Source of the DNA: Thermoplasmatota archaeon
Lineage (GTDB): Archaea > Thermoplasmatota > Penumbrarchaeia > Penumbrarchaeales > Penumbrarchaeaceae
Length of the DNA: 36,372 nucleotides
Direction: 5' to 3'
Assembly: GCA_965234725.1 (NCBI GenBank)
Contig: CBDDUX010000066.1
Location: forward strand, 1-36,372
A program made the position numbers and the translations under genes. Below the pieces are notes generated by a model that did not search any database, had not been told where the DNA came from, and saw only the letters and a list, made by a program, of their open reading frames with translations. Shown here piece after piece: positions 1 through 27,118 of the stretch. Each line of letters starts with the position of its first letter. Positions within the stretch are counted from its first letter, which is position 1.

Positions 1-1
1 T

Positions 2-163
2 ATCGGTGGGCCAGTGTACCTTACATCGATTCAAAAAGTTAGTGAAGTACTGAAGGTTAGTATTATACATTCTTCCTCCAATTTTAAAAAGATCTTTATA
101 TTCAAATTTACACGCATAGGCAAATGCATTGCCACGCTTTTCAAATTCCTTCTCAAAGTCCAT
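2..163 (-). CDS. Hypothetical protein, partial (runs off window start): MDFEKEFEKRGNAFAYACKFEYKDLFKIGG...
   Basis: ATG at 163 preceded by SD-like AGTGA, open to the window edge, same orientation as other island ORFs. Not in the ORF track. Confidence 0.5.
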   Translation of the reverse strand, partial: MDFEKEFEKRGNAFAYACKFEYKDLFKIGGRMYNTNLQYFTNFLNRCKVHWPTD

Positions 164-359
164 AAATCATCACTTCAAAGGAGACGATTATTTATGAATG
201 TAATAATAATATCTGCTAAAAAAGTCATTTTTATTTGAGTAATCGAATTTTCAGATATTATTTCAGACTCTCTTCAAAAGATGAAGAAGAGGTCCGAGAT
301 CCCCGATTAAAGGAAGGTGTGGATTAATGAATTATTTTTTAAATATGAATTTGTTTGTT

Positions 360-668
360 CTAATGAATTGTCATTTCACCTTCCTGATTAAATTCAATAT
401 CAGAAAATATTTTTTCCATTTCTTTATGTTGGGGTGTGATAATTTCAATTATTAATCCATCTTGAGATTTTTTAACATTATCTTTCCTAAAAGAGATTTG
501 GAATTTCTTTCCCTTGGAAGTTATTTTAGCAAAATACTTTCTATTATCTTCCAACTCGAGTGGATGGTAGAAAAAAACATCACCAATTGTATTATTTATT
601 CCTGGACGGATTTTCACAACCTGAGGTGTGTTAATCGATTCATTTATGCTGTTATTCATTTTATTCAC
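360..668 (-). CDS. Hypothetical protein (island ORFan, ~100 aa)
   Basis: SD AGGTGA upstream of the internal ATG (MNNSIN), co-oriented with neighbours, hydrophilic composition. Confidence 0.6.
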   Translation of the reverse strand: MNKMNNSINESINTPQVVKIRPGINNTIGDVFFYHPLELEDNRKYFAKITSKGKKFQISFRKDNVKKSQDGLIIEIITPQHKEMEKIFSDIEFNQEGEMTIH

Positions 669-814
669 CTTTTACACATATATTCACATTTTTGTTATTT
701 AAACCCCGGTATAATTTCATATTTAAAGATTGTTATTGCATCATTCGATGGATTCCCTAATAGATTTGAGAATGTCCTACTTCCCGGGAGAAAAGGACAT
801 ATCAGGAGGGGAGT

Positions 815-1102
815 TTATTGTTGGATACAGGTCAAAATCAGTTCTATCTTATCCACTTCAGCAAGAAATCGATGAAATGGTTCTGGAACTTTGATCCAAG
901 TTCTCATTTTTCCATCTTCCGAAAGTCCCCATATCTCATTTGGTTTGAAAAAGAATTCACCTCTTTCAGTTTTTACTGTCACATAATTAACAGTAAGACC
1001 TCGAGCATCCCCCTCGAATCCAATAATCGAATTTCTTGCTTGACCAAATTTATCTCCTTCAATATCTCCAACGATTTCTTCATTATTCTCAACCATATTC
1101 AA
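815..1102 (-). CDS. Hypothetical protein (island ORFan, ~93-95 aa)
   Basis: SD-like AGTGA upstream, plausible globular composition, co-oriented. Confidence 0.6.
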   Translation of the reverse strand: MNMVENNEEIVGDIEGDKFGQARNSIIGFEGDARGLTVNYVTVKTERGEFFFKPNEIWGLSEDGKMRTWIKVPEPFHRFLAEVDKIELILTCIQQ

Positions 1103-1126
1103 TCACTTCTTAAGATGAATGGATTT

Positions 1127-1367
1127 CTAATTTAAGAATTGTCCGACTCTCGAGAGATATGGAAATCCAGGAGGTTCAATCTTGATATTAATAAAAACTA
1201 TACTCCATACATTCTTCCTTAACAAGGTTTGCAAAGTTTCCAACTGCTTCCATTATTGCATTGGAAATGGCAATTTTCTGATTGTTGGTAAATTCCCCAG
1301 GGGCATAATGATCAAGCTTTTTTTCAATTTCATTCCTAAATTTAATTTCCATAGGTCCTGTAATCAT
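1127..1367 (-). pseudogene. Small hypothetical gene (MITGPMEIKFRNEIEKKLDHY...), 59 aa to TAA at 1188-1190, possibly frameshifted
   Basis: GGTGA SD before ATG 1367. A T5 run precedes the stop; removing one T extends the frame (FINIKIEPPGFPYLSRVGQFLN) to TAG at 1127-1129. It could equally be an intact 59-aa gene. Confidence 0.4.
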
Positions 1368-1461
1368 CCTAAATCACCAATAAGTCAAGATATTGATAAT
1401 ACTTCAAGTATCCGACTCTGTTCAAAAAAGGAAATAAGGGAGGGATCATGTGATTAATTTA

Positions 1462-2766
1462 CTGAAGTTTTGCGTTTCAGATCAGAATCACCCTTTTCAC
1501 CTTCGTAGAGTTGTAGGGATACAATACTGATGTCACGATCTTTTCATAGCTCTTCCTACCATTTCTCCGAACGAATCTGATAAAACTCCTCAATAATTCA
1601 AGATGGAGCAATCGGCGCTTAAGTCCAGGCGTACCAACCTTTCTCTTCAAAACACCAAGCAAGGGGGAAAGCAAGGTGACTATCTCGAGGAAGGTGTCCG
1701 CGCAGGAACTCAGAGTGAGGTACTTACTCACTCCTTCAACACCCCTGAGCCGGCAATCCTTTAACCCGTAGTCCACCTTGCCTTCCCGATGCCATACTTC
1801 AATGTCCCATCTTCTACAATATATTTTCAATATCTTCTCCTCGTTCCAATCCAATCTGTTGCTCACAAAGAATTTGAAATTACCACGATCACTGTTTGAG
1901 ATCAACAATCGAACAGGACCTACACCTTTCATTTCTACGGTCATCACTTTCACAAGATAGGTGTCATCTCCAATCTTGACAGTCTTAAAACTCCTGCCCG
2001 GAAATATGCTTTCAGCATACTTCTTAACGGATGTCCATTCATTGTTTATCTTGATCTGTCTGTTTGATTTCACCTGGCCAACCCAATCCTTGTTCAATGA
2101 TTCAACATGATCAATAAGTTTCTTTGTAGTATACCATGTATCGAATGTGACTACTGAAAAAATCAAACCCATATCCACCAACTTCGTAAGGTGGACCTTC
2201 TGAAGTTCTATCTTGGTCTGATGTTTCTTCATGTCCAGCCATTTACTGTCTTTACGTATGTAGAGTGTCTGGAGCAATGGGAAAATACCATTTCCTGAGT
2301 ATACACAATCAACAACATTGTGCCCAAATACGTTCTTTCCTTCTGAGTGATCGAAATGGTAATCTGAACCATAGATCTTGGTCCCATATTTCTCCACGAT
2401 GTAGTCATCAAGAATGACCACACCATTTTCATCTGCTCGATTTATCATTCCCATTCTGGTTTTGTCAAGTTTGTATTCACTCCATAAATTGGAGTTTACA
2501 AACCTGTTCAAGTTCGATTGATCGGTATGTTCTATGAAGGAACCGTTAATCTCTGTGATGGTTGATTTGTATGAGAAAAGGAAGCCAGTAAGCATCCTCT
2601 TGAATTGGTTGAATGTTCGTTTCTGATTGAATATCTCTCTGTAATATTCTGCAAGCTCTTCTATGAAGCACGGAAATCCCGCGATCGGAGTATCCATCCG
2701 CATCCCCGGGTATCAAATATAAACCTCAGAACATACAAATCTTTCGCTCAAAACGCAAAAGTCCAG
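1462..2766 (-). mobile_element. IS701-family insertion sequence (~1.3 kb)
   Basis: TIRs CTGAAGTTTTGCGTTT (1462-1477) and AAACGCAAAAGTCCAG (2751-2766) match 14/16. Direct repeat TAATTTA at 1455-1461 and 2767-2773; the TIR/TSD split is ambiguous. Single transposase ORF. Confidence 0.88.
1477..2703 (-). CDS. IS701-family DDE transposase
   Basis: Motifs DQSNLNRF, VILDDYIVEKYG (D), TFDTWY (D), YCRRWDIEVWHRE (YxxRWxIE, E). Intact 408-aa ORF. Confidence 0.88.
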   Translation of the reverse strand: MRMDTPIAGFPCFIEELAEYYREIFNQKRTFNQFKRMLTGFLFSYKSTITEINGSFIEHTDQSNLNRFVNSNLWSEYKLDKTRMGMINRADENGVVILDDYIVEKYGTKIYGSDYHFDHSEGKNVFGHNVVDCVYSGNGIFPLLQTLYIRKDSKWLDMKKHQTKIELQKVHLTKLVDMGLIFSVVTFDTWYTTKKLIDHVESLNKDWVGQVKSNRQIKINNEWTSVKKYAESIFPGRSFKTVKIGDDTYLVKVMTVEMKGVGPVRLLISNSDRGNFKFFVSNRLDWNEEKILKIYCRRWDIEVWHREGKVDYGLKDCRLRGVEGVSKYLTLSSCADTFLEIVTLLSPLLGVLKRKVGTPGLKRRLLHLELLRSFIRFVRRNGRKSYEKIVTSVLYPYNSTKVKRVILI

Positions 2767-2770
2767 TAAT

Positions 2771-3088
2771 TTATTTAGAATGAGCTGTGATAATACGAAT
2801 TTCTGCCTTAAAATCTTCATAATCCATTGTCATAGGAAGGAATTGGTTGATATGTGGAGAGGAATTGTCGGGAATTGTAATTATATATGTGCGTGGTTTA
2901 AATTTCCCCATTGGAAAATATTTATTAGTATTAAAAATTATAGATTTATCTTGAAAAAATATTTTAATCTCATATTCTTCTCCAATAATCAAGTCTCTAA
3001 TTTTATGAAGCCCTTTACATTTAATAGTTTTATTTCCAAAATGATAATCATAAAATCCAAGTTTTTCATTAAGGCATTCGCTTCTCAT
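2771..3088 (-). CDS. Hypothetical protein (island ORFan, 105 aa)
   Basis: Co-oriented AT-rich ORF whose TAA stop lies inside the IS target duplication. Confidence 0.55.
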   Translation of the reverse strand: MRSECLNEKLGFYDYHFGNKTIKCKGLHKIRDLIIGEEYEIKIFFQDKSIIFNTNKYFPMGKFKPRTYIITIPDNSSPHINQFLPMTMDYEDFKAEIRIITAHSK

Positions 3089-3249
3089 CTAATCAACTTA
3101 ATCTTAACTATGTCAAGAGGTGTATTTACTCTTTACGATTTCTGTGTAATGAAGGAAAATTCCAACTATCTGGAAAATAGTAACGATATCATTCTGCAGG
3201 GTGAACAGGAAAAGCAGACCAAATCGGACAAAGTTTTTGGAGGGAGTAT

Positions 3250-3345
3250 ATGAAGGTTGCACTCTATATGAGAGTATCCACGGACCATCAAACAACAGAA
3301 AACCAATACCGGAGATTGGAGGAATTTTGCGATAGAAAAGGGTAG
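3250..3345 (+). pseudogene. N-terminal fragment of a serine recombinase (resolvase/invertase family)
   Basis: Translates MKVALYMRVSTDHQTTENQYRRLEEFCDRKG*, with the canonical YxRVSTxxQ...Q catalytic-Ser motif. GGAGG SD upstream. The stop coincides with the edge of the GC-rich insert. Confidence 0.85.
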
Positions 3346-3707
3346 GCTCTGGACGTTGGTCAGTGACCAACACGTTTTGACCAAAGGCAAAGCCTTTCGC
3401 TCCATCGGTCTCACACATAAACCAGACGTGTGTGCGATTGGACGTTACGGGGATTCCATCAATACTTTCTGTTCGTAGCCATATCCAGTTCGATCGACCG
3501 GCAGGAGCGGGTCCTGGTTCCCACTCATCCAGCCTTTGTCGAGGGGCTTCAGCCCTTGTGTGTATTTGCCACATCTTCAAGCACTGCCCTCCTTCTTCTC
3601 TGCCTGTCTGCACACAGGCAGGGCGGAGCCGACCTTCGTCATCTCCGCAGAAACTTACCAAGTTAGCCTGGCGCACGCCCTCTTTGTCCATATAATGAAA
3701 AAGAGCC
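3345..3707 (-). ncRNA. Putative structured non-coding RNA / non-autonomous insertion element (group II intron D1-D4-like or omega-RNA-like)
   Basis: About 54% GC (hand count) inside AT-rich DNA. Termini GGCTCT/AGAGCC. Multiple stems: 3600-3607/3614-3621, 3623-3628/3643-3648, 3505-3511/3520-3526, 3494-3498/3538-3542, 3466-3471/3648-3653, 3422-3427/3666-3671. G-U wobbles favour the minus strand. GTGCGCC begins at 3676 on the minus strand. Confidence 0.55.
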
Positions 3708-3824
3708 CAGGATGAACCATTATCAGAAAAATAAAAAATCAACACAGGAGGAATTCAGATCAACCAAATTCAAGGGAAATTACAGAGTGGATATGGTCGG
3801 ATGAGGGTCTGGATAAGGCCATTA

Positions 3825-5102
3825 TCAGTCTGATATTCTCCTGATAATGGTTGTTTTTTCATTCTCTTCATATTCATATTTTCTAGGGTCACTACTATCG
3901 ATCTGATTAGGGTTTATTGAAAGACCAATATTGGAGACTAATTTTGTCATATTATTGACCATTTCTGTAAGTTGTTTATTTTCTAGTTTTAATTTCTGGA
4001 TCTGATCAAAGAACATTTCTTCATTCAGTTTCATTTTATCAATTTTATCATCCAGAATAGTGATTCTTTTTTCATTTTTCTGCAATTCTTGGTTATTAAC
4101 ATCTGTCTGGAGATATGATTGAGATTTAACATATGATTCTTTCAGATCTGCCAGATGACTGTCTATGAGGCCTTTATTCATAGTATATGTGGACATCATA
4201 TCTCCTTTATGACCCATCATGAATTGACTGAATGAATGATGCATTATACCATGATATTCGGCCTCATTCATCCTTGAAGCAAAGTATCTTCTCAAAACAT
4301 AGGGTCTTTTATTAATCCCAATTTTTCTAAGGGATATACGAATTCCATTCCTTACTGCCCCTGTGCTTAAGAATATAGGTTCAGTATCCTTTTTCTTTCT
4401 CTCAAAAGCACATCTGACAACAGGAGAATTATTGTCTATGATCTCTCCCTGTCTTATTCTGGAATCAATATAATTCTCCAGGTGTTTGGATCCCTCTTCA
4501 CATAGAAATGTAAGATATCTATTGGATGTTTTCGAGAGGACTGACCGTACTGTGATCATAACAGGGGTCTCGAATGATATTTTTCCATTCTGAATTGACC
4601 ATCCCTCGAGATCTCCCATTCTGAGGCCATTTTCCCCATGAGGATCCCCGATAACCCCAGGCCTTAGACCTGAGAATCCCATTAGACAAATTGATACTCT
4701 ATCTCGAGGAGTGGCCATCTGAAGAACATTAGATAATTCTTCTTTGGTTGGTATCTTTTCATCTTCTACTGTAGGAGTTGATTGTATATTCTTTGGATGT
4801 GGGATCTTCTTAAAATCCACATCATAATACAATAAATAAGAATAAATGGCCTTAAATTGGGTCATGATTGTGCTGGGGGCCTTACCTATTTTCTTTTCAT
4901 CTTTTGCATATCTCAACATTTTATCATATAAGATCTTCTTATTCAATGATAAAACTGATTCAGGTGTTTCTCTCATTGTCTTCAAGATCGAGGATAATCC
5001 CCTTAGGTAGACAATTGAAGTGCTTTCAGAATGATTGTAAATGAATTCTTCATACCATTCCTTGACATGATGATCATCCAACATATCTGTTATTATCGAC
5101 AT
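3825..5102 (-). CDS. Site-specific tyrosine recombinase/integrase with C-terminal coiled coil
   Basis: Catalytic set R (FSGLRPG), K (LSKT), YxxR variant of HxxR (RPYVLRRYF), H (MMGH), Y (STYT). Archaeal integrase-like architecture at the island edge. Confidence 0.9.
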   Translation of the reverse strand: MSIITDMLDDHHVKEWYEEFIYNHSESTSIVYLRGLSSILKTMRETPESVLSLNKKILYDKMLRYAKDEKKIGKAPSTIMTQFKAIYSYLLYYDVDFKKIPHPKNIQSTPTVEDEKIPTKEELSNVLQMATPRDRVSICLMGFSGLRPGVIGDPHGENGLRMGDLEGWSIQNGKISFETPVMITVRSVLSKTSNRYLTFLCEEGSKHLENYIDSRIRQGEIIDNNSPVVRCAFERKKKDTEPIFLSTGAVRNGIRISLRKIGINKRPYVLRRYFASRMNEAEYHGIMHHSFSQFMMGHKGDMMSTYTMNKGLIDSHLADLKESYVKSQSYLQTDVNNQELQKNEKRITILDDKIDKMKLNEEMFFDQIQKLKLENKQLTEMVNNMTKLVSNIGLSINPNQIDSSDPRKYEYEENEKTTIIRRISD

Positions 5103-5116
5103 ACTAGGGGTAAATG

Positions 5117-5156
5117 AAACCTTAAATAAATAGGTTTTTGTGTCAAATATGTTTGA
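5117..5156. promoter_or_regulatory. Integrase promoter region with inverted repeats
   Basis: Minus-strand TTTATTTAAG TATA-like box about 20-30 nt upstream of the integrase ATG, bracketed by AAACCT (5117-5122) and AGGTTT (5132-5137). Second dyad TCAAA-TATG-TTTGA at 5143-5156. Confidence 0.4.
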
Positions 5157-5164
5157 TAGTCCTT

Positions 5165-5392
5165 ATGGGTTTTGTGAGAAGGTCCCGCAACGGCGGAGCC
5201 CTCAAAGTGAGCGTGAATCAGAACGCATTCGAGACCGCGGAGAGATACCATACCTCAGACGGCACCGAATACGTGGGAATGATTATCAATCTCAATAGAT
5301 TGAGGAACCTTTTGAACGGGGAGCAGGAGGTCACTGCCATCAACCAGATAGTCGATGGCCATGCTCCCGAGAATGCATCCTTAGATAGTTGA
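5165..5392 (+). CDS. Small conserved hypothetical protein of Thermoplasmatota type (GxVRxSxxGGALKxS motif)
   Basis: Resembles, from memory, a ~70-aa Thermoplasmatota family. Host-like GC. Start uncertain (ATG 5165 vs TTG 5138). Confidence 0.7.
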   Translation: MGFVRRSRNGGALKVSVNQNAFETAERYHTSDGTEYVGMIINLNRLRNLLNGEQEVTAINQIVDGHAPENASLDS

Positions 5393-5421
5393 CCCCACCA
5401 GCCTGGTTAAGTCCACACCCG

Positions 5422-5446
5422 GGGCGGGAGACCCCCTCTCCCGCCC
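5422..5446. terminator. GC-rich hairpin between convergent genes
   Basis: Perfect 10-bp stem GGGCGGGAGA/TCTCCCGCCC with a 5-nt loop, followed by a T-rich tract. Confidence 0.5.
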
Positions 5447-5458
5447 ACTCATTTCCTT

Positions 5459-8400
5459 TTACTCATCAAATAGACGGTCCAGGAGATCATCCTCTTCCTT
5501 ATCATCATATTCCGGAGATTCATTGTGGACCTCCTCTTTTGGAACTCCTTCTTCTTCGGATTCCTCTTGAAGATCCTCCTCTTCCTCAGATGGTACTTCT
5601 TTTTCAATGATCGGGACGACCGGAGAACTTGCTTTCTCCAATTCCAATTTCCAGGTCGCTATCTCCTCTTCGGTCGGGTCCTGCCCATAGAGGTCCTTGT
5701 AGGTCCTTATCCTTTCAGTGATGGGATCGGTTGCCTTCTTCCTCTTGGAAGTGAACCTGCTGATCAATATCCCAATGAAGGCGATGATCGCTACAATGAG
5801 GAGCACAATAATGAGGAAGGCCGGAATGATCAGCCCATTCGGAAGGACCGAGAGGAACGGAAGTACGTCTGTGATATCATCGGTCAAAGGTGTCGATTCA
5901 TCACCACCAGGTGCATCCTTGACATCTATGACCAATCCTTCCACAAGTGTCTCCGTTGTCCCATCCTCGGATATGGCCTTGATGGAGAACATATACTCTC
6001 TCTTGGGGGTCTTCTCCTCGGGAGAGACAACGATATCAAATGCTTTTGGAATTGGAATATCCATTCCCTTTGATGACATTACAGAGAATGTCCCGACAGA
6101 TGTTCCGGTGGTCTCAAAGAATATCCAACCGGCATCCACGGGTTCCCCCTCCAGGTAAAGCGTGACATTATCCGGAAGGGTCCCTTTGTTTAGGATTTCA
6201 CAGTTCATAGGACCGGATATTGAGAAGCCCTTACCCCGAAAAGCAATATGGTTCTGTGGCAGGGTAAGGTTGATACTATAATCCGAGATCTTGAAAAGGG
6301 CGGTCCTGACCCTTGAGAAATTCCCGTTGGCCCATGCCATGACCTGTGTGGAATATGTCCCGACCCCCAGTCCCAGGGTCGACATATCGAACGAAGTGTT
6401 CTTGCCGAGGTCTATCCAATCGAGCACGTCACCGGTTAGATATGATGACCCCACTCGGAACCAGTAATCCGAATCCGGGATGTCCGATCCATCCCACTCG
6501 ACATTTACCGAACCTGTTCTGGTAAAATAGGGGCCGAACTCCGGGACCATCGAAGGGGGTTTTGGACCAAGGTCCTTGATCTGGAAGGGATGATCCATGA
6601 AATCCTCCCCTCCGATCCTGTCGGTCACATGTATCCTGAGAACATAGAAATCCGGGGCAAGTGCCTCCCTGTCAGGGAGATCGAAGAACGTATTGCTCCC
6701 GAGGTCGAAGAAGTCCATCAGCTGCAGATTGTTCCTCATGACCATTGCTCTGTAATAAAGGACATCGCCGTCCTCGTCGTATGCATCCTCCCACCAGAAA
6801 TGCGGGGTGGGGGATGCTACAATATCCGGCCATGCCCTTCCCTTGAAAACAGGACGGTAGTTATCAGGAACATCCACCTTCACAATGAACTCCCTTGATT
6901 CCACCAGGTTTCCAACATGGTCCGAGACCCTCCATTTGATCTTTGAATAAATTCCCTCATCCGGAAAGTTCACGGATACCCAGGCCCTGTAAGCTCCCTT
7001 ATCCACTTCCATACGACCGTCTGGGAACATCCAGTCCGAGAAACCTTCGGATGTTTTCTTGTAAGCATACATGATGGTAGATGGGTCCACACCGGTGAAT
7101 TCCAGATTGGTGCTTCCTTCCAGATTGTCCCTTATGGTGATTGAACAGTTCACATCCGAATATATCCGGGTATCGTTCTCCAGCGGACTCACATCCATGA
7201 AATAGGGTGGTGTGGGGTCCAGCCATATATTGATCGGGTCCGTGATGAATGGTCCATTACCCACTCTATCATAAGCTTCGAACTTGAGGTAGTTGTTCTT
7301 CCCGGGATACATAGTGGTAGATCCCCATGCTTCGATGGTATCGTTGTCTATGACCTTGTATCCCGACATCTTGATACCCTTGTCGAACTCATTGGGCCCC
7401 TGGAATGAAATGTTGAACCTGATCCTATCAGGGTCCACTCCGGCACCTCCGGTATCTGTAACTCTCACCCTGCAGTTGACCTTGGCGGAACTGTTCCACA
7501 CTTCCGGTGTGGGATCAAGGATCTCTATCGATGGTATAGATGTGTCAATTAGCGGTCCCGGTAAGATATCTGATGATATTATTGAAGGATCGGCTTCGTC
7601 GGATATCTCCATCTTCCAGTAGAACCTTCCTTCTTCAGGGATACGGACCGTCACATTGTACGGGACCCCATCCATATAATATATGTCAGAGGGACCTCTG
7701 TTCTTCCCAAGGATCACTGGCTGGGTGAGGACCGGGTCCGTTCCCTGGGGATCCCTGAAGAGGTACATTCTGGGGAATCCCTCCCTTGGAGCATCGTTAT
7801 CAGTATCCCTGTAGGTCAGATTGAACGTGAAATTTGTCATGGTCGATCCAACAGTGGGATCGAAACCGGATTCCCCGAAATACCATTTGGAGTCGATCAC
7901 TGGCAGATATGTGGTCCCATCAAGTGACTTCGAATGGCGGGACATGAAAAGGGACCTCTTGATCCCGTCACCCACCCTGTAATCACCATAATACGTGCAA
8001 AGCACCCTTCCAGTTTGGTCGTATACCCCTGCTGTATATTTCTGGTCAAGCCTGTCCTCCTTGAACCTGTCCTCATCATCTATCCTGAGGGGCTTTTCCC
8101 AGGTTTCCCCGTTATCACTGGAATCCATGTAGAATGCCTCGGACTCCAGATCAGGATTCCCATAGGAGTTCACGAACTCCACCTGTCTCTCCCAGGTAAC
8201 GAAAAGCCTGTTACCCCCATATGTCCCAATGAATGGGTCCAGGTCTCTGGTGTCCGCAGGTGGGTCTATCAGTCTTCTGTCAGGTGTGAAATTCCCTCCG
8301 TGGTCCGTACTCTTGACGAACCAGATCTCCTCCACATCCGATCTCTGGTCCACCCAGGCAATGTATAGTGTCCCATTGTCATCCAGAGCAGGGATAGCCC

Positions 8401-19326: not shown

Positions 19327-19914
19327 ATGGACAGGCCAAGCAAAGTGGATGAAGGACCCAATAAAAAAGAACGAATGTCCTCGGTCTATGTGAAATGGGT
19401 AGCCATAGGGATCGGGGTGTTCATGGTCATGGTTGGAGGTTTGCTCCTACTGTGGGGTTTTTCATACCAGGCAACCGTGGGAGAGCCGACCGATCTGGAG
19501 GGTGATGAACTTAAAGGGGGTCCTGTCCTGGTCCCGATAGGAGCTGCTTCCATCGCATTTGGAGCATTATGGCTATTCTATGGGATCAAGGGATTCAAAC
19601 GTCCGGGAGAGGAGGTCGGCATGAAAAGATGTCCTCATTGCGGAAAGACCATCGAGGAGGACCTTAATTTCTGCTATCACTGCGCCACGACCTTCACCAC
19701 TCCCGAAGAGGTGGAAAGGGAGATGAGGTCTGTGGAAGAGGAAGAAGAAGAGGATCCTGAGGAAAGTACCTCGGATGATGGTCCGTCCAAAGGTCAGATG
19801 GCCAGGATGAGGAGGCAGCAGGAAAGGAGACCATCATCCGATAATGAGTTGGATGGCATTGAAAGAAGAGCTTCTCCTCTTAAAGGACTTGAAGGAGGGG
19901 GGAAGGGTCAGTGA
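19327..19914 (+). CDS. Membrane protein (2 TM) with zinc ribbon and acidic tail
   Basis: Two hydrophobic segments and CPHCGK...FCYHCA. Start placed at ATG 19327 (track start 19288). Confidence 0.75.
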   Translation: MDRPSKVDEGPNKKERMSSVYVKWVAIGIGVFMVMVGGLLLLWGFSYQATVGEPTDLEGDELKGGPVLVPIGAASIAFGALWLFYGIKGFKRPGEEVGMKRCPHCGKTIEEDLNFCYHCATTFTTPEEVEREMRSVEEEEEEDPEESTSDDGPSKGQMARMRRQQERRPSSDNELDGIERRASPLKGLEGGGKGQ

Positions 19915-19948
19915 AAGTATTTTTAGACCATGGTATATACACTCGTTC

Positions 19949-21124
19949 ATGAAGACCGCCCTTGACGCCCTCAAGCGTAGCAATATATTCAAAGACCAAT
20001 CAAAACTTTCCTTTGACTTCGTCCCAGAGGAACTACCGGGCAGGGAAAAGGAGATGGACGGTCTTGCAAGATTGTTCAGACCCGTACTCTACGATAAGAT
20101 GAGCCAAACTGCACTCATAACAGGACCTGTTGGCTCTGGTAAGACCGCTGTGGTGAAAAGATTCTGCATGGTCCTGGAAAAAGCAGGATTGGAGAACAGA
20201 AGGAGGATCGAGAGCGTCCACGTCAACTGCAGGAACCGGAAATCAGAATCCATGGTCCTGCTCTCCATCCTCACCCACTTCGATCCCAGGTTCCCCGACA
20301 GAGGATTCTCCATTCCGGAAATGATAGAGATCCTTAAGAAGCATCTCAAAAGGAAGGAATGCCACCTGGTCATAGTCCTGGATGAGGCGGATGTGCTCCT
20401 GAAAAGGTCCGGATCGGACCTTGTCTATAATTTCACACGTATCCAGGAGGAGGATTCAGACCTCCTGGGTTCGATCTCCCTTGTCATGGTCAGCCAGAAG
20501 GCAGTAGTCCAGCTTCTTGACAAGGCATCACTTTCCACTTTCAAGAGGACGAACCATCTGGAGTTCGGGAAATACGATATGGATGTCCTCAAGGCAATAG
20601 TGGACCAGAGGATAGAAATGGCCTTCCATCAGAATATCGTGGAAGATGGTGTCTCCGAGATGATCGCCTCCATGGCAGAGGAGTACGGCGATGCCAGATT
20701 TGCAATTGAACTCCTTGAGAAATCCGGGATGGTTGCTGAGGAGAAGGGAAGCGATACGGTCAATCCGGAGCATTCCAGATGGGCCAAGGCTGACGTGAAG
20801 CCGTTCATCTTCGAGGAGACAATACATCAGCTCAATGTCCATGAACAGGTGATGCTCCTTGCCGCATCCAGGCTCCTGAAAAGGACCGCCTACTGTTCCA
20901 CAGGAGAGCTTGAAACAGAATATCAGGCATTGTGTGAACAGGTCAACAAGAAACCCCTGGGGCATACCCAGTTCTGGCAGTACATGAAGGAGATGGATGC
21001 TTTCGGCCTGATCTCAACGAAGAGGTCCGGGAAAGGTACTGTGGGGAACACTACTCTGATAACGATCCAGGACGTTCCTGTCCAGGAGCTTATCGAATAC
21101 CTTGAAAGGACCTTGCTTTCCTGA
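19949..21124 (+). CDS. cdc6: ORC1/Cdc6-type replication initiator
   Basis: DFVPEELPGRE, Walker A GPVGSGKT, HVNC, Walker B IVLDEAD, sensor GDARFAI, C-terminal winged helix. Start placed at ATG 19949. Confidence 0.93.
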   Translation: MKTALDALKRSNIFKDQSKLSFDFVPEELPGREKEMDGLARLFRPVLYDKMSQTALITGPVGSGKTAVVKRFCMVLEKAGLENRRRIESVHVNCRNRKSESMVLLSILTHFDPRFPDRGFSIPEMIEILKKHLKRKECHLVIVLDEADVLLKRSGSDLVYNFTRIQEEDSDLLGSISLVMVSQKAVVQLLDKASLSTFKRTNHLEFGKYDMDVLKAIVDQRIEMAFHQNIVEDGVSEMIASMAEEYGDARFAIELLEKSGMVAEEKGSDTVNPEHSRWAKADVKPFIFEETIHQLNVHEQVMLLAASRLLKRTAYCSTGELETEYQALCEQVNKKPLGHTQFWQYMKEMDAFGLISTKRSGKGTVGNTTLITIQDVPVQELIEYLERTLLS

Positions 21125-26149: not shown

Positions 26150-27118
26150 ATGATGGAAAAGGACCACTATGATCAGGCGGCAACTGTATTCTCACCGGAT
26201 GGAAGGGTATATCAGGTGGAATATGCGAGGGAGGCCATCAAGAGAGGTGGTCTGGCAATGGGTATCCGCTTCAAGGGCGGGATACTGTTCACCATAGACA
26301 AGTCCATCTTCTCTCCACTTGTGGAAGAGGATAACATAGAGAAGTTCTTCAAGGTGACACCGACCATCGGTGCAGCAGCCTCGGGTTTGATTGCCGATGC
26401 AAGGGTCCTTATCGATCTTCTAAGGGACAAAGCCCAGGCAGAGAAGAGACGATACGGTGAGGAACCCGACATCCATACGATGGTGGAATGGGTGTCCAAG
26501 ATATACGAGGTCTACACCAGATACGAGGGCGTCAGACCATTCGGAACTGCAATAATCATCGGCGGGGTGGACCCAACAGGATTCCACCTGTTCGAAACGG
26601 ATCCATCCGGAGTTTTCCAGGAGAGAAGGGCCACGGCCATAGGGAAGGGATCGAAGACCGCAATGGAGATACTGGAAACCAAACACAGTGTGGACATCAG
26701 CCGTGATGAGGCCATAACACTAACATTCGAGATACTCAAGGCCACCCTTGTTGAGAGGCCTCAGGACATTCCCAAGGGAGAGGAACTCCATATAATCACA
26801 AAGAACGGTTTCGAAAGGATCGACCTCGATGCGGAAGGGGACAGGGTCAAAGAGCTTCTGGAGCGGGTGACGGCAGCCTCTCAAGAGTTGATATCAAAGG
26901 AGAAAGGACAGAAAAAGGAACTCGTGAAGGCTCAAAAGGACCTTCCTGATATACTCCTGGATATCAAAGGAGTATCCCAGGGGATCATGGGATCCCTGAT
27001 CCTGAAATATCCGGATATTGCCTCCCTGAAGAAAGCCAAAAGAAAGGACCTTATGTCCATCCCGGGTATCGGTAAGGTCCTTGCCGATAGGATAATTGAA
27101 GCTGTAAAGGACCTATGA
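26150..27118 (+). CDS. psmA: 20S proteasome alpha-subunit paralog fused to a C-terminal tandem helix-hairpin-helix domain
   Basis: YDQAATVFSPDGRVYQVEYAREAIKRG, IEKF, SGLIADAR, GVRPFG, ETDPSG and ATAIG motifs. C-terminal LLDIKGVS...DLMSIPGIGKVLADRI. GGTGA SD. Confidence 0.88.
   Translation: MMEKDHYDQAATVFSPDGRVYQVEYAREAIKRGGLAMGIRFKGGILFTIDKSIFSPLVEEDNIEKFFKVTPTIGAAASGLIADARVLIDLLRDKAQAEKRRYGEEPDIHTMVEWVSKIYEVYTRYEGVRPFGTAIIIGGVDPTGFHLFETDPSGVFQERRATAIGKGSKTAMEILETKHSVDISRDEAITLTFEILKATLVERPQDIPKGEELHIITKNGFERIDLDAEGDRVKELLERVTAASQELISKEKGQKKELVKAQKDLPDILLDIKGVSQGIMGSLILKYPDIASLKKAKRKDLMSIPGIGKVLADRIIEAVKDL

Follow-up and report, generated by a model that had tools for sequence, protein, structure and literature searches.

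A GC-rich block in an AT-rich archaeal mobile-DNA island is very probably the 5′ stub of a dead group II intron from a Thermoplasmatota family

What is the GC-rich block that interrupts the AT-rich left part of this DNA? In the window, by which we mean the whole 36,372-nt stretch that was analysed, GC content amounts to 53.7% at 3345-3707, as compared with 32.6% at 2700-3344 and 35.2% at 3708-5100. This bears out an earlier note on the same DNA, which had described a GC-rich block in AT-rich surroundings and, on its minus strand, dense secondary structure. The latter is confirmed by folding: the minus strand of the block reaches -138.7 kcal/mol (z = -3.87, with 1/100 shuffles equally good) and the plus strand -121.7 kcal/mol (z = -2.88; 0/100 shuffles). 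The note had offered two readings, namely a group II intron-like ribozyme without D5/D6 that starts at GUGCGCC (3676) on the minus strand, and a stand-alone, omega-RNA-like mobile element with 6-bp inverted termini. We are highly confident that the minus strand from 3676 to 3344 is a dead, 3′-truncated copy of a mobile group II intron, belonging to a family of uncultured Thermoplasmatota archaea. The note's GTGCGCC is indeed present at 3676, and the kind of element was rightly recognised, while its domain details were not. High GC content and dense pairing are features that the stub has inherited from the ribozyme.

The identification is carried by two full-length relatives. A degenerate pattern built from invariant alignment columns, with one match in the window and none expected by chance, was scanned against genome contigs and retrieved two loci, L001 and L002, both in Thermoplasmatota MAGs (Table 1). 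By blastn, the stub is 88.6% identical to L001 3896-4228 (334 columns, 2 gaps) and 76.2% identical to L002 (328 columns); the two relatives share 69.2% identity end to end, and their RT proteins 63%. The L001/L002 family is a typical RT-encoding group II intron: in common with bacterial and archaeal members of this class (RF00029 Intron_gpII, TIGR04416), both loci possess a GUGCG 5′ end, a domain I of ~400 nt, D2, D3, an RT+X (GIIM) ORF in D4, a 34-nt D5 with an AGC triad, and D6. Their RT ORF probably starts at a conserved MEL(I/V) near intron nt 564. Pfam detects no endonuclease domain in the RT/maturases of the relatives, and among solved structures the L001 RT comes closest to RTs of group II introns (LtrA, 7uim, 6me0 and GsI-IIC). 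The term 'ORF-less', which the note had applied to its D4-like hairpin, is thus inappropriate for a family that encodes an RT/maturase.

Table 1. Coordinates of the features discussed, in the window and at the two related loci
Feature	Coordinates	Strand	Evidence or remark
Group II intron 5′ fragment (very probable), intron nt 1-333, 3′-truncated; ~first 80% of domain I, without D2-D6 or RT gene	3344-3676	-	blastn, alignments, covariation
GUGCG, intron 5′ end (5′ splice-site consensus GUGYG)	3672-3676	-	similarity among window, L001 and L002 starts exactly here; upstream unrelated
5′ exon/flank, wrongly counted as part of the element by the earlier note	3677-3707	-	no similarity to L001/L002 flanks; hairpin z = +0.49
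EBS2 GUCCA, intron nt 234-238, unpaired stretch of domain I	3439-3443	-	aligned with L001 CCCCAAA and L002 UACGUA; unpaired in consensus folds
IBS2 UGGAC, exon -14 to -10, in 5′ exon	3686-3690	-	5 Watson-Crick pairs with window EBS2
Breakpoint, truncated intron/truncated resolvase, within ~2 nt	3342-3344	.	homology ends at 3344 (blastn) or 3343 (vs L002); last resolvase codon ends at 3342
Serine recombinase (resolvase/invertase) remnant, 31 codons then TAG	3250-3345	+	Pfam Resolvase 25.0 bits (cut-off 23.3); PHROG DNA invertase 1.1e-06
IS701-family transposase	1477-2703	-	in AT-rich island
Tyrosine-integrase-like gene, stop 148 nt upstream of intron 5′ end, same strand	3825-5102	-	phrog_1 integrase 5e-14; weak Pfam Phage_int_SAM_1, E = 0.18
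L001, complete group II intron, 2240 nt (uncultured Thermoplasmatales MAG, 43,752-nt contig)	3896-6135
L001 D5/D6	6042-6135		Rfam Intron_gpII, 61.2 bits (gathering score 40)
L001 ORF between 5′ region and D5			Pfam RVT_1 E = 3.5e-33, GIIM E = 1.3e-16; NCBIfam TIGR04416 (RT/maturase) 339.4 bits (cut-off 300)
L002, complete group II intron, 2211 nt (Thermoplasmatota MAG)	4144-1934	-
L002 D5/D6	2025-1934		Rfam Intron_gpII, 61.8 bits (gathering score 40)
L002 ORF between 5′ region and D5			Pfam RVT_1 E = 4.5e-34, GIIM E = 1.2e-17; NCBIfam TIGR04416 (RT/maturase) 348.6 bits (cut-off 300)

Rfam returned nothing at gathering score over the whole window, and at E <= 10 the stretches 3000-4100 and 3320-3720 gave only chance-level snoRNA, leader and lncRNA matches, none of them to a group II, HEARO, RNase P, SRP or rRNA model. 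The Rfam group-II-D1D4 models were built for particular bacterial classes; they match neither the window (E <= 10) nor L001 and L002 (E <= 1), so that the family's D1-D4 region sets it apart from the Rfam-modelled group II introns. The 5′ part is therefore assigned by its homology to loci with a typical D5/D6 and RT, and not by a direct model match.

Unlike a full group II intron, the window copy consists of partial domain I only. It can be aligned to intron nt 1-333, and no further intron DNA is present in the 36-kb window: tblastn with the IEPs of both relatives gave a best E of 0.54 and no RT, and D5/D6 are missing, Rfam being empty both at gathering score (whole window) and at E <= 10 (3000-4100). 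Lacking the closing 3′ strands of domain I, domains II-VI including the catalytic domain V, and an RT, the stub can neither splice nor move.

Where does the element begin and end? The block had been delimited as 3345-3707, yet homology to the relatives spans only 3676 to 3344 on the minus strand. Upstream of the GUGCG, the remaining 31 nt (3677-3707) resemble neither of the L001 and L002 flanks, and indeed the flank is unrelated in all three copies. The proposed 6-bp inverted termini, GGCTCT at 3345-3350 and AGAGCC at 3702-3707, do exist and pair with each other in the minimum-energy fold; since the right-hand arm sits in the unrelated flank, they do not mark the ends of an element. A target-site duplication, whose absence had been noted before, is not seen in the sequence. 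Nor does the block resemble a MITE, with one arm outside the conserved unit, no target-site duplication and a single copy in the window, where self-blast revealed no second one. Distant-mode blastn of 3300-3760 against PLSDB plasmids and INPHARED phages gave no match, and a tRNA scan of the window found no tRNA, so the block is no integration target of the tRNA type.

The structure of the relatives tells which part of the ribozyme is left. A consensus fold of the full L001 and L002 5′ regions comprises 154 pairs, 26 of them with compensatory changes; herein, domain I closes between nt ~6-28 and ~391-410 (alignment columns), followed by D2 at ~411-464 and D3 at ~465-523. With domain I closing at columns 391-410, the window piece represents a partial domain I, roughly its first 80%, and the break lies within the hairpin at columns 324-354, in its 5′ strand or its loop. 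A check for covariation, as the earlier note had called for, gave a positive answer. In a three-sequence alignment of window, L001 and L002, the only nucleotide sequences on which the count rests, 95.4% of the cells of 87 local pairs are paired, and 18 of these 87 pairs display compensatory changes, a number reached by 0/500 shuffles and to be compared with 0-5 in slid controls. The note's finer assignments do not survive this comparison: its domain I closing helix and its D3-like and D4-like hairpins all fall inside the relatives' domain I, and the GAGCC that it had taken for the start of D5 forms the 5′ side of a hairpin within domain I, the true D5 starting at nt ~2147 in L001. The three-sequence fold also proposed a long-range helix between columns 22-28 and 328-334 that uses the terminal GAGCC; we rejected it because columns 25-28 pair with 391-394 in the full-length relatives. 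As a side observation on the hairpin at the break, the last 8 nt of the L001 5′ exon (3888-3895, GGUUCAGG) are identical to its 3′ strand (columns 346-354, intron nt ~343-350), and the exon end of L002 loosely resembles L002's own loop at this hairpin. These likenesses may reflect chance or the trace of a nested insertion.

The 5′ junction provides a second line of support. The three copies differ in sequence at an unpaired stretch that aligns among them (intron nt 233-239), and in each of them this stretch can form Watson-Crick pairs with the copy's own 5′ exon at -15 to -9, which is an EBS2-IBS2 interaction: GUCCA/UGGAC in the window (5 bp), CCCCAAA/UUUGGGG in L001 (7 bp) and UACGUA/UACGUA in L002 (6 bp). 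Because the EBS2 of each copy matches its own exon, the exon-intron boundary in the window is an authentic insertion site. For EBS1-IBS1, no aligned position works consistently across the three copies; the window has a candidate EBS1 (GCCUUU, nt 289-294; 6 bp including 2 G-U pairs), whose aligned position fails in L001 and L002. Class IIC introns insert directly downstream of a stem-loop (a terminator or attC) and are not known to possess an EBS2. A IIC-like position just after a hairpin, as suggested previously, is not supported, since the 5′ exons of the three copies fold no better than shuffles (z = +0.49, +0.96 and -0.03) and EBS2-IBS2 pairing is present. Both findings argue against an RNA of the IIC type.

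Why, then, does the block look like a gene? On the minus strand, a 213-codon stop-to-stop frame (3113-3754) spans the ribozyme fragment together with the antisense of a resolvase remnant. We used its translation as a probe for spurious ORFs predicted over other copies. Among 23 candidates, it found 20 database proteins (62-98% identity), one being the window's own; the 19 others are 62-81% identical to the window frame and stem mostly from contigs of 0.7-4.7 kb. A search against representative proteins gave 15 matches at E <= 0.001, 9 of which are short single-stretch ORFs of the same spurious kind, and the remaining 6 (675-2252 aa, 5-12 stretches) are taken to be compositional. A minus-strand protein-coding gene with 19 database homologues would account for a frame that stays open over the entire block and for 'proteins' that are up to 81% identical, but several findings contradict it. 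There is no match to a Pfam family. Conservation among the homologues begins exactly at V/M-R-(Q/R)-A-N-L, the translation of GTG CGC CAG GCT AAC, that is, at GUGCG, where there is no start codon, and the residues upstream of the GUGCG codons vary. All homologues run ~75 residues past the point where the window diverges, and two subgroups translate this same downstream region in different frames while remaining similar, as exemplified by L001 DNA, in which one frame yields LHPGKRYSLS and a second frame over the same bases TPSGEEIQPKS. From the frame-shifted homologues and the common start at GUGCG it follows that conservation acts at the nucleotide level. Moreover, base pairs covary, and the C-terminal third of the frame, antisense to the resolvase remnant, occurs in no homologue. 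We therefore give a coding gene next to no credence: the 213-codon frame and its 19 similar ORFs are spurious gene calls, and the long open frame over the stub is a by-product of high GC. Six of the homologue ORFs extend upstream of GUGCG, and four of these (P0009, P0010, P0012 and P0013) have a similar flank (..F/C-L-L-A/R-L..), which suggests a common preferred homing site, unlike the sites of the window and L001.

At its 3′ end, the stub abuts the beginning of another gene. The resolvase ORF (3250-3342) covers positions 1-30 of the 145-position Pfam Resolvase model (PF00239), and its TAG stop at 3343-3345 was created by the junction with the intron fragment. A full serine recombinase would comprise a complete catalytic domain and a DNA-binding domain; here, model positions 1-30 are all that is present. 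Was this gene split by an insertion, as had been thought? Removing 3345-3707 does open the frame as predicted, by 31 further codons (3709-3801). Neither for these codons nor for the other two frames of the plus strand after 3667 did Pfam return a family, whether at E <= 1 or at E <= 10, so the deletion restores no resolvase gene. With resolvase sequence absent after the block, the gene is a remnant and not one split by insertion.

How did the two stumps come to lie side by side? Abortive target-primed reverse transcription during retrohoming yields copies that are truncated at the 5′ end. Here, by contrast, the 5′ end and the cognate exon are kept, and the stub was therefore truncated after insertion. 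In the history that we propose, a complete intron of ~2.2 kb, made up of the ribozyme with an RT/maturase gene lodged in its domain IV, would have retrohomed into an AT-rich mobile-DNA island, namely into the spacer 148 nt downstream of the integrase-like gene, at a site recognised in part through EBS2-IBS2 base pairing. Later, everything after intron nt ~333 would have been lost, along with a convergent serine-recombinase gene beyond its codon 31, which fused the two stumps and thereby made the TAG stop. We infer this order of events, and the most economical cause of the loss would be a single deletion or illegitimate recombination with its end points in the intron and in the convergent resolvase gene.

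Alternatively, the intron might have been interrupted rather than deleted, in which case the AT-rich sequence left of 3344 would be mobile DNA that had been inserted, with the missing intron part lying beyond the contig's left end. Several features speak for this scenario: without the block, 1-5100 is AT-rich and mobile-looking (35.4% GC, compared with 49.8% for 5459-36372), the DNA left of 3344 harbours an IS701-family transposase, and the window seems to be a whole contig, so that DNA further left lies outside our view. What meets the intron at the break, though, is no recognisable end of a mobile element but the stump of a gene, namely codons 1-31 of the resolvase, which read in the direction of the break. 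As the abutting DNA is itself truncated, at least one deletion would be needed even under interruption, and no intron or RT remnant was found elsewhere in 1-36372. We thus favour deletion; an insertion by which the missing part was displaced beyond the contig is the weaker alternative and, in our judgement, unlikely. Might the stub instead have kept a function, either as one half of a group II intron that is split and spliced in trans, or as a domain I RNA that was retained for regulation or as a decoy? Its good preservation (88.6% identity to L001) and a 5′ exon junction that retains the cognate IBS2 would fit. Known split points of group II introns, on the other hand, lie in D4 or D3, whereas here the break cuts a hairpin of domain I and has taken away the strands that close this domain; in addition, the partner half is absent from the window and the 5′ exon is a non-coding spacer of a mobile-DNA island, all of which makes such a role exceedingly improbable. 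We see a very slim chance for a bolder proposal, according to which the stub would be the 5′ half of an archaeal split intron or a trans-acting domain I RNA, with the rest of D1 and D2-D6 elsewhere in the genome, or, more modestly, the family without an Rfam D1-D4 match would represent a structural lineage of archaeal group II introns that has yet to be described.

Hardly any credence is due to the stand-alone RNA of the earlier note, be it omega-RNA-like or a new small mobile structured RNA, 363 bp long, ending in 6-bp inverted termini and moved in trans. Its arms are present and paired in the minimum-energy fold, the fold is stronger than that of shuffles, and, like IscB/TnpB omega-RNAs (HEARO, RF02033) and non-autonomous IS200/IS605 derivatives, the stub is structured non-coding RNA tied to mobile DNA. 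Against this, homology stops 26 nt inside the right-hand arm, leaving that arm in unconserved flank; the relatives are 2.2-kb introns and not 363-bp units, and the window holds a single copy. Neither HEARO nor any other Rfam family matched (E <= 10), no IscB/TnpB neighbour exists (an IscB/TnpB-type domain was found in 0/33 window ORFs scanned), and intron homology accounts for 3344-3676. The idea is therefore virtually without standing, and the supposed new class of mobile RNA turns out to be an ordinary relic of a known kind of element.

The surroundings of the stub merit brief description. The AT-rich island (1-5100) contains the IS701-family transposase, the resolvase remnant, the intron stub, the integrase-like gene and several small ORFs without a family match; it reaches the left end of the window, and its left boundary thus lies outside. 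The integrase-like protein (425 aa) has its SAM-like match at the N terminus and a coiled-coil-like C-terminal tail. The Pfam Phage_integrase catalytic domain was not matched in it, and the protein may represent a diverged tyrosine recombinase of archaea. The integrase stop codon lies between the arms of a 19-nt inverted repeat (3715-3733/3834-3852, 89% complementary); in addition, two perfect copies of the 10-nt direct repeat CCATTATCAG are found 102 nt apart, at 3717-3726 and 3819-3828. Together, these repeats might act as a terminator or as a site of recombination. The gene content of the window is archaeal, with Orc1/Cdc6, a proteasome alpha subunit and an archaeal-type transposase. A replication origin may be located near the Orc1/Cdc6 homologue (19844-21124, plus strand), and the proteasome alpha subunit (26150-27118, plus strand) bears a C-terminal helix-hairpin-helix domain (Pfam HHH_5, HHH), an unusual fusion.

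Islands of mobile DNA are commonly littered with truncated copies of group II introns, and Dai and Zimmerly reportedly described fragmentary copies in archaeal genomes in 2003. The stub is hence of little importance in itself, being a non-functional fragment of a known kind of element. Its relatives belong to a phylum in which such introns are established: a survey gives group II introns in 15% of complete Thermoplasmatota genomes, distinguishes the archaeal IEP clades bacterial-C, bacterial-D, CL1A and CL1B, and lists class C introns in Methanomethylophilus alvus and archaeon ISO4-H5 (PMC8919778). L001 and L002 share with these archaeal introns the host phylum, Thermoplasmatota, and an RT/maturase without a Pfam-detectable endonuclease domain.

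What, then, can be learned from a dead intron? Recognising the 213-codon frame and its homologues as ribozyme-borne spurious ORFs is a useful fix for annotation. The covariation of EBS2 and IBS2 in three copies defines part of the family's target recognition. Finally, the stub and its relatives document a group II intron family of uncultured Thermoplasmatota whose 5′ region is missed by the Rfam D1-D4 models.
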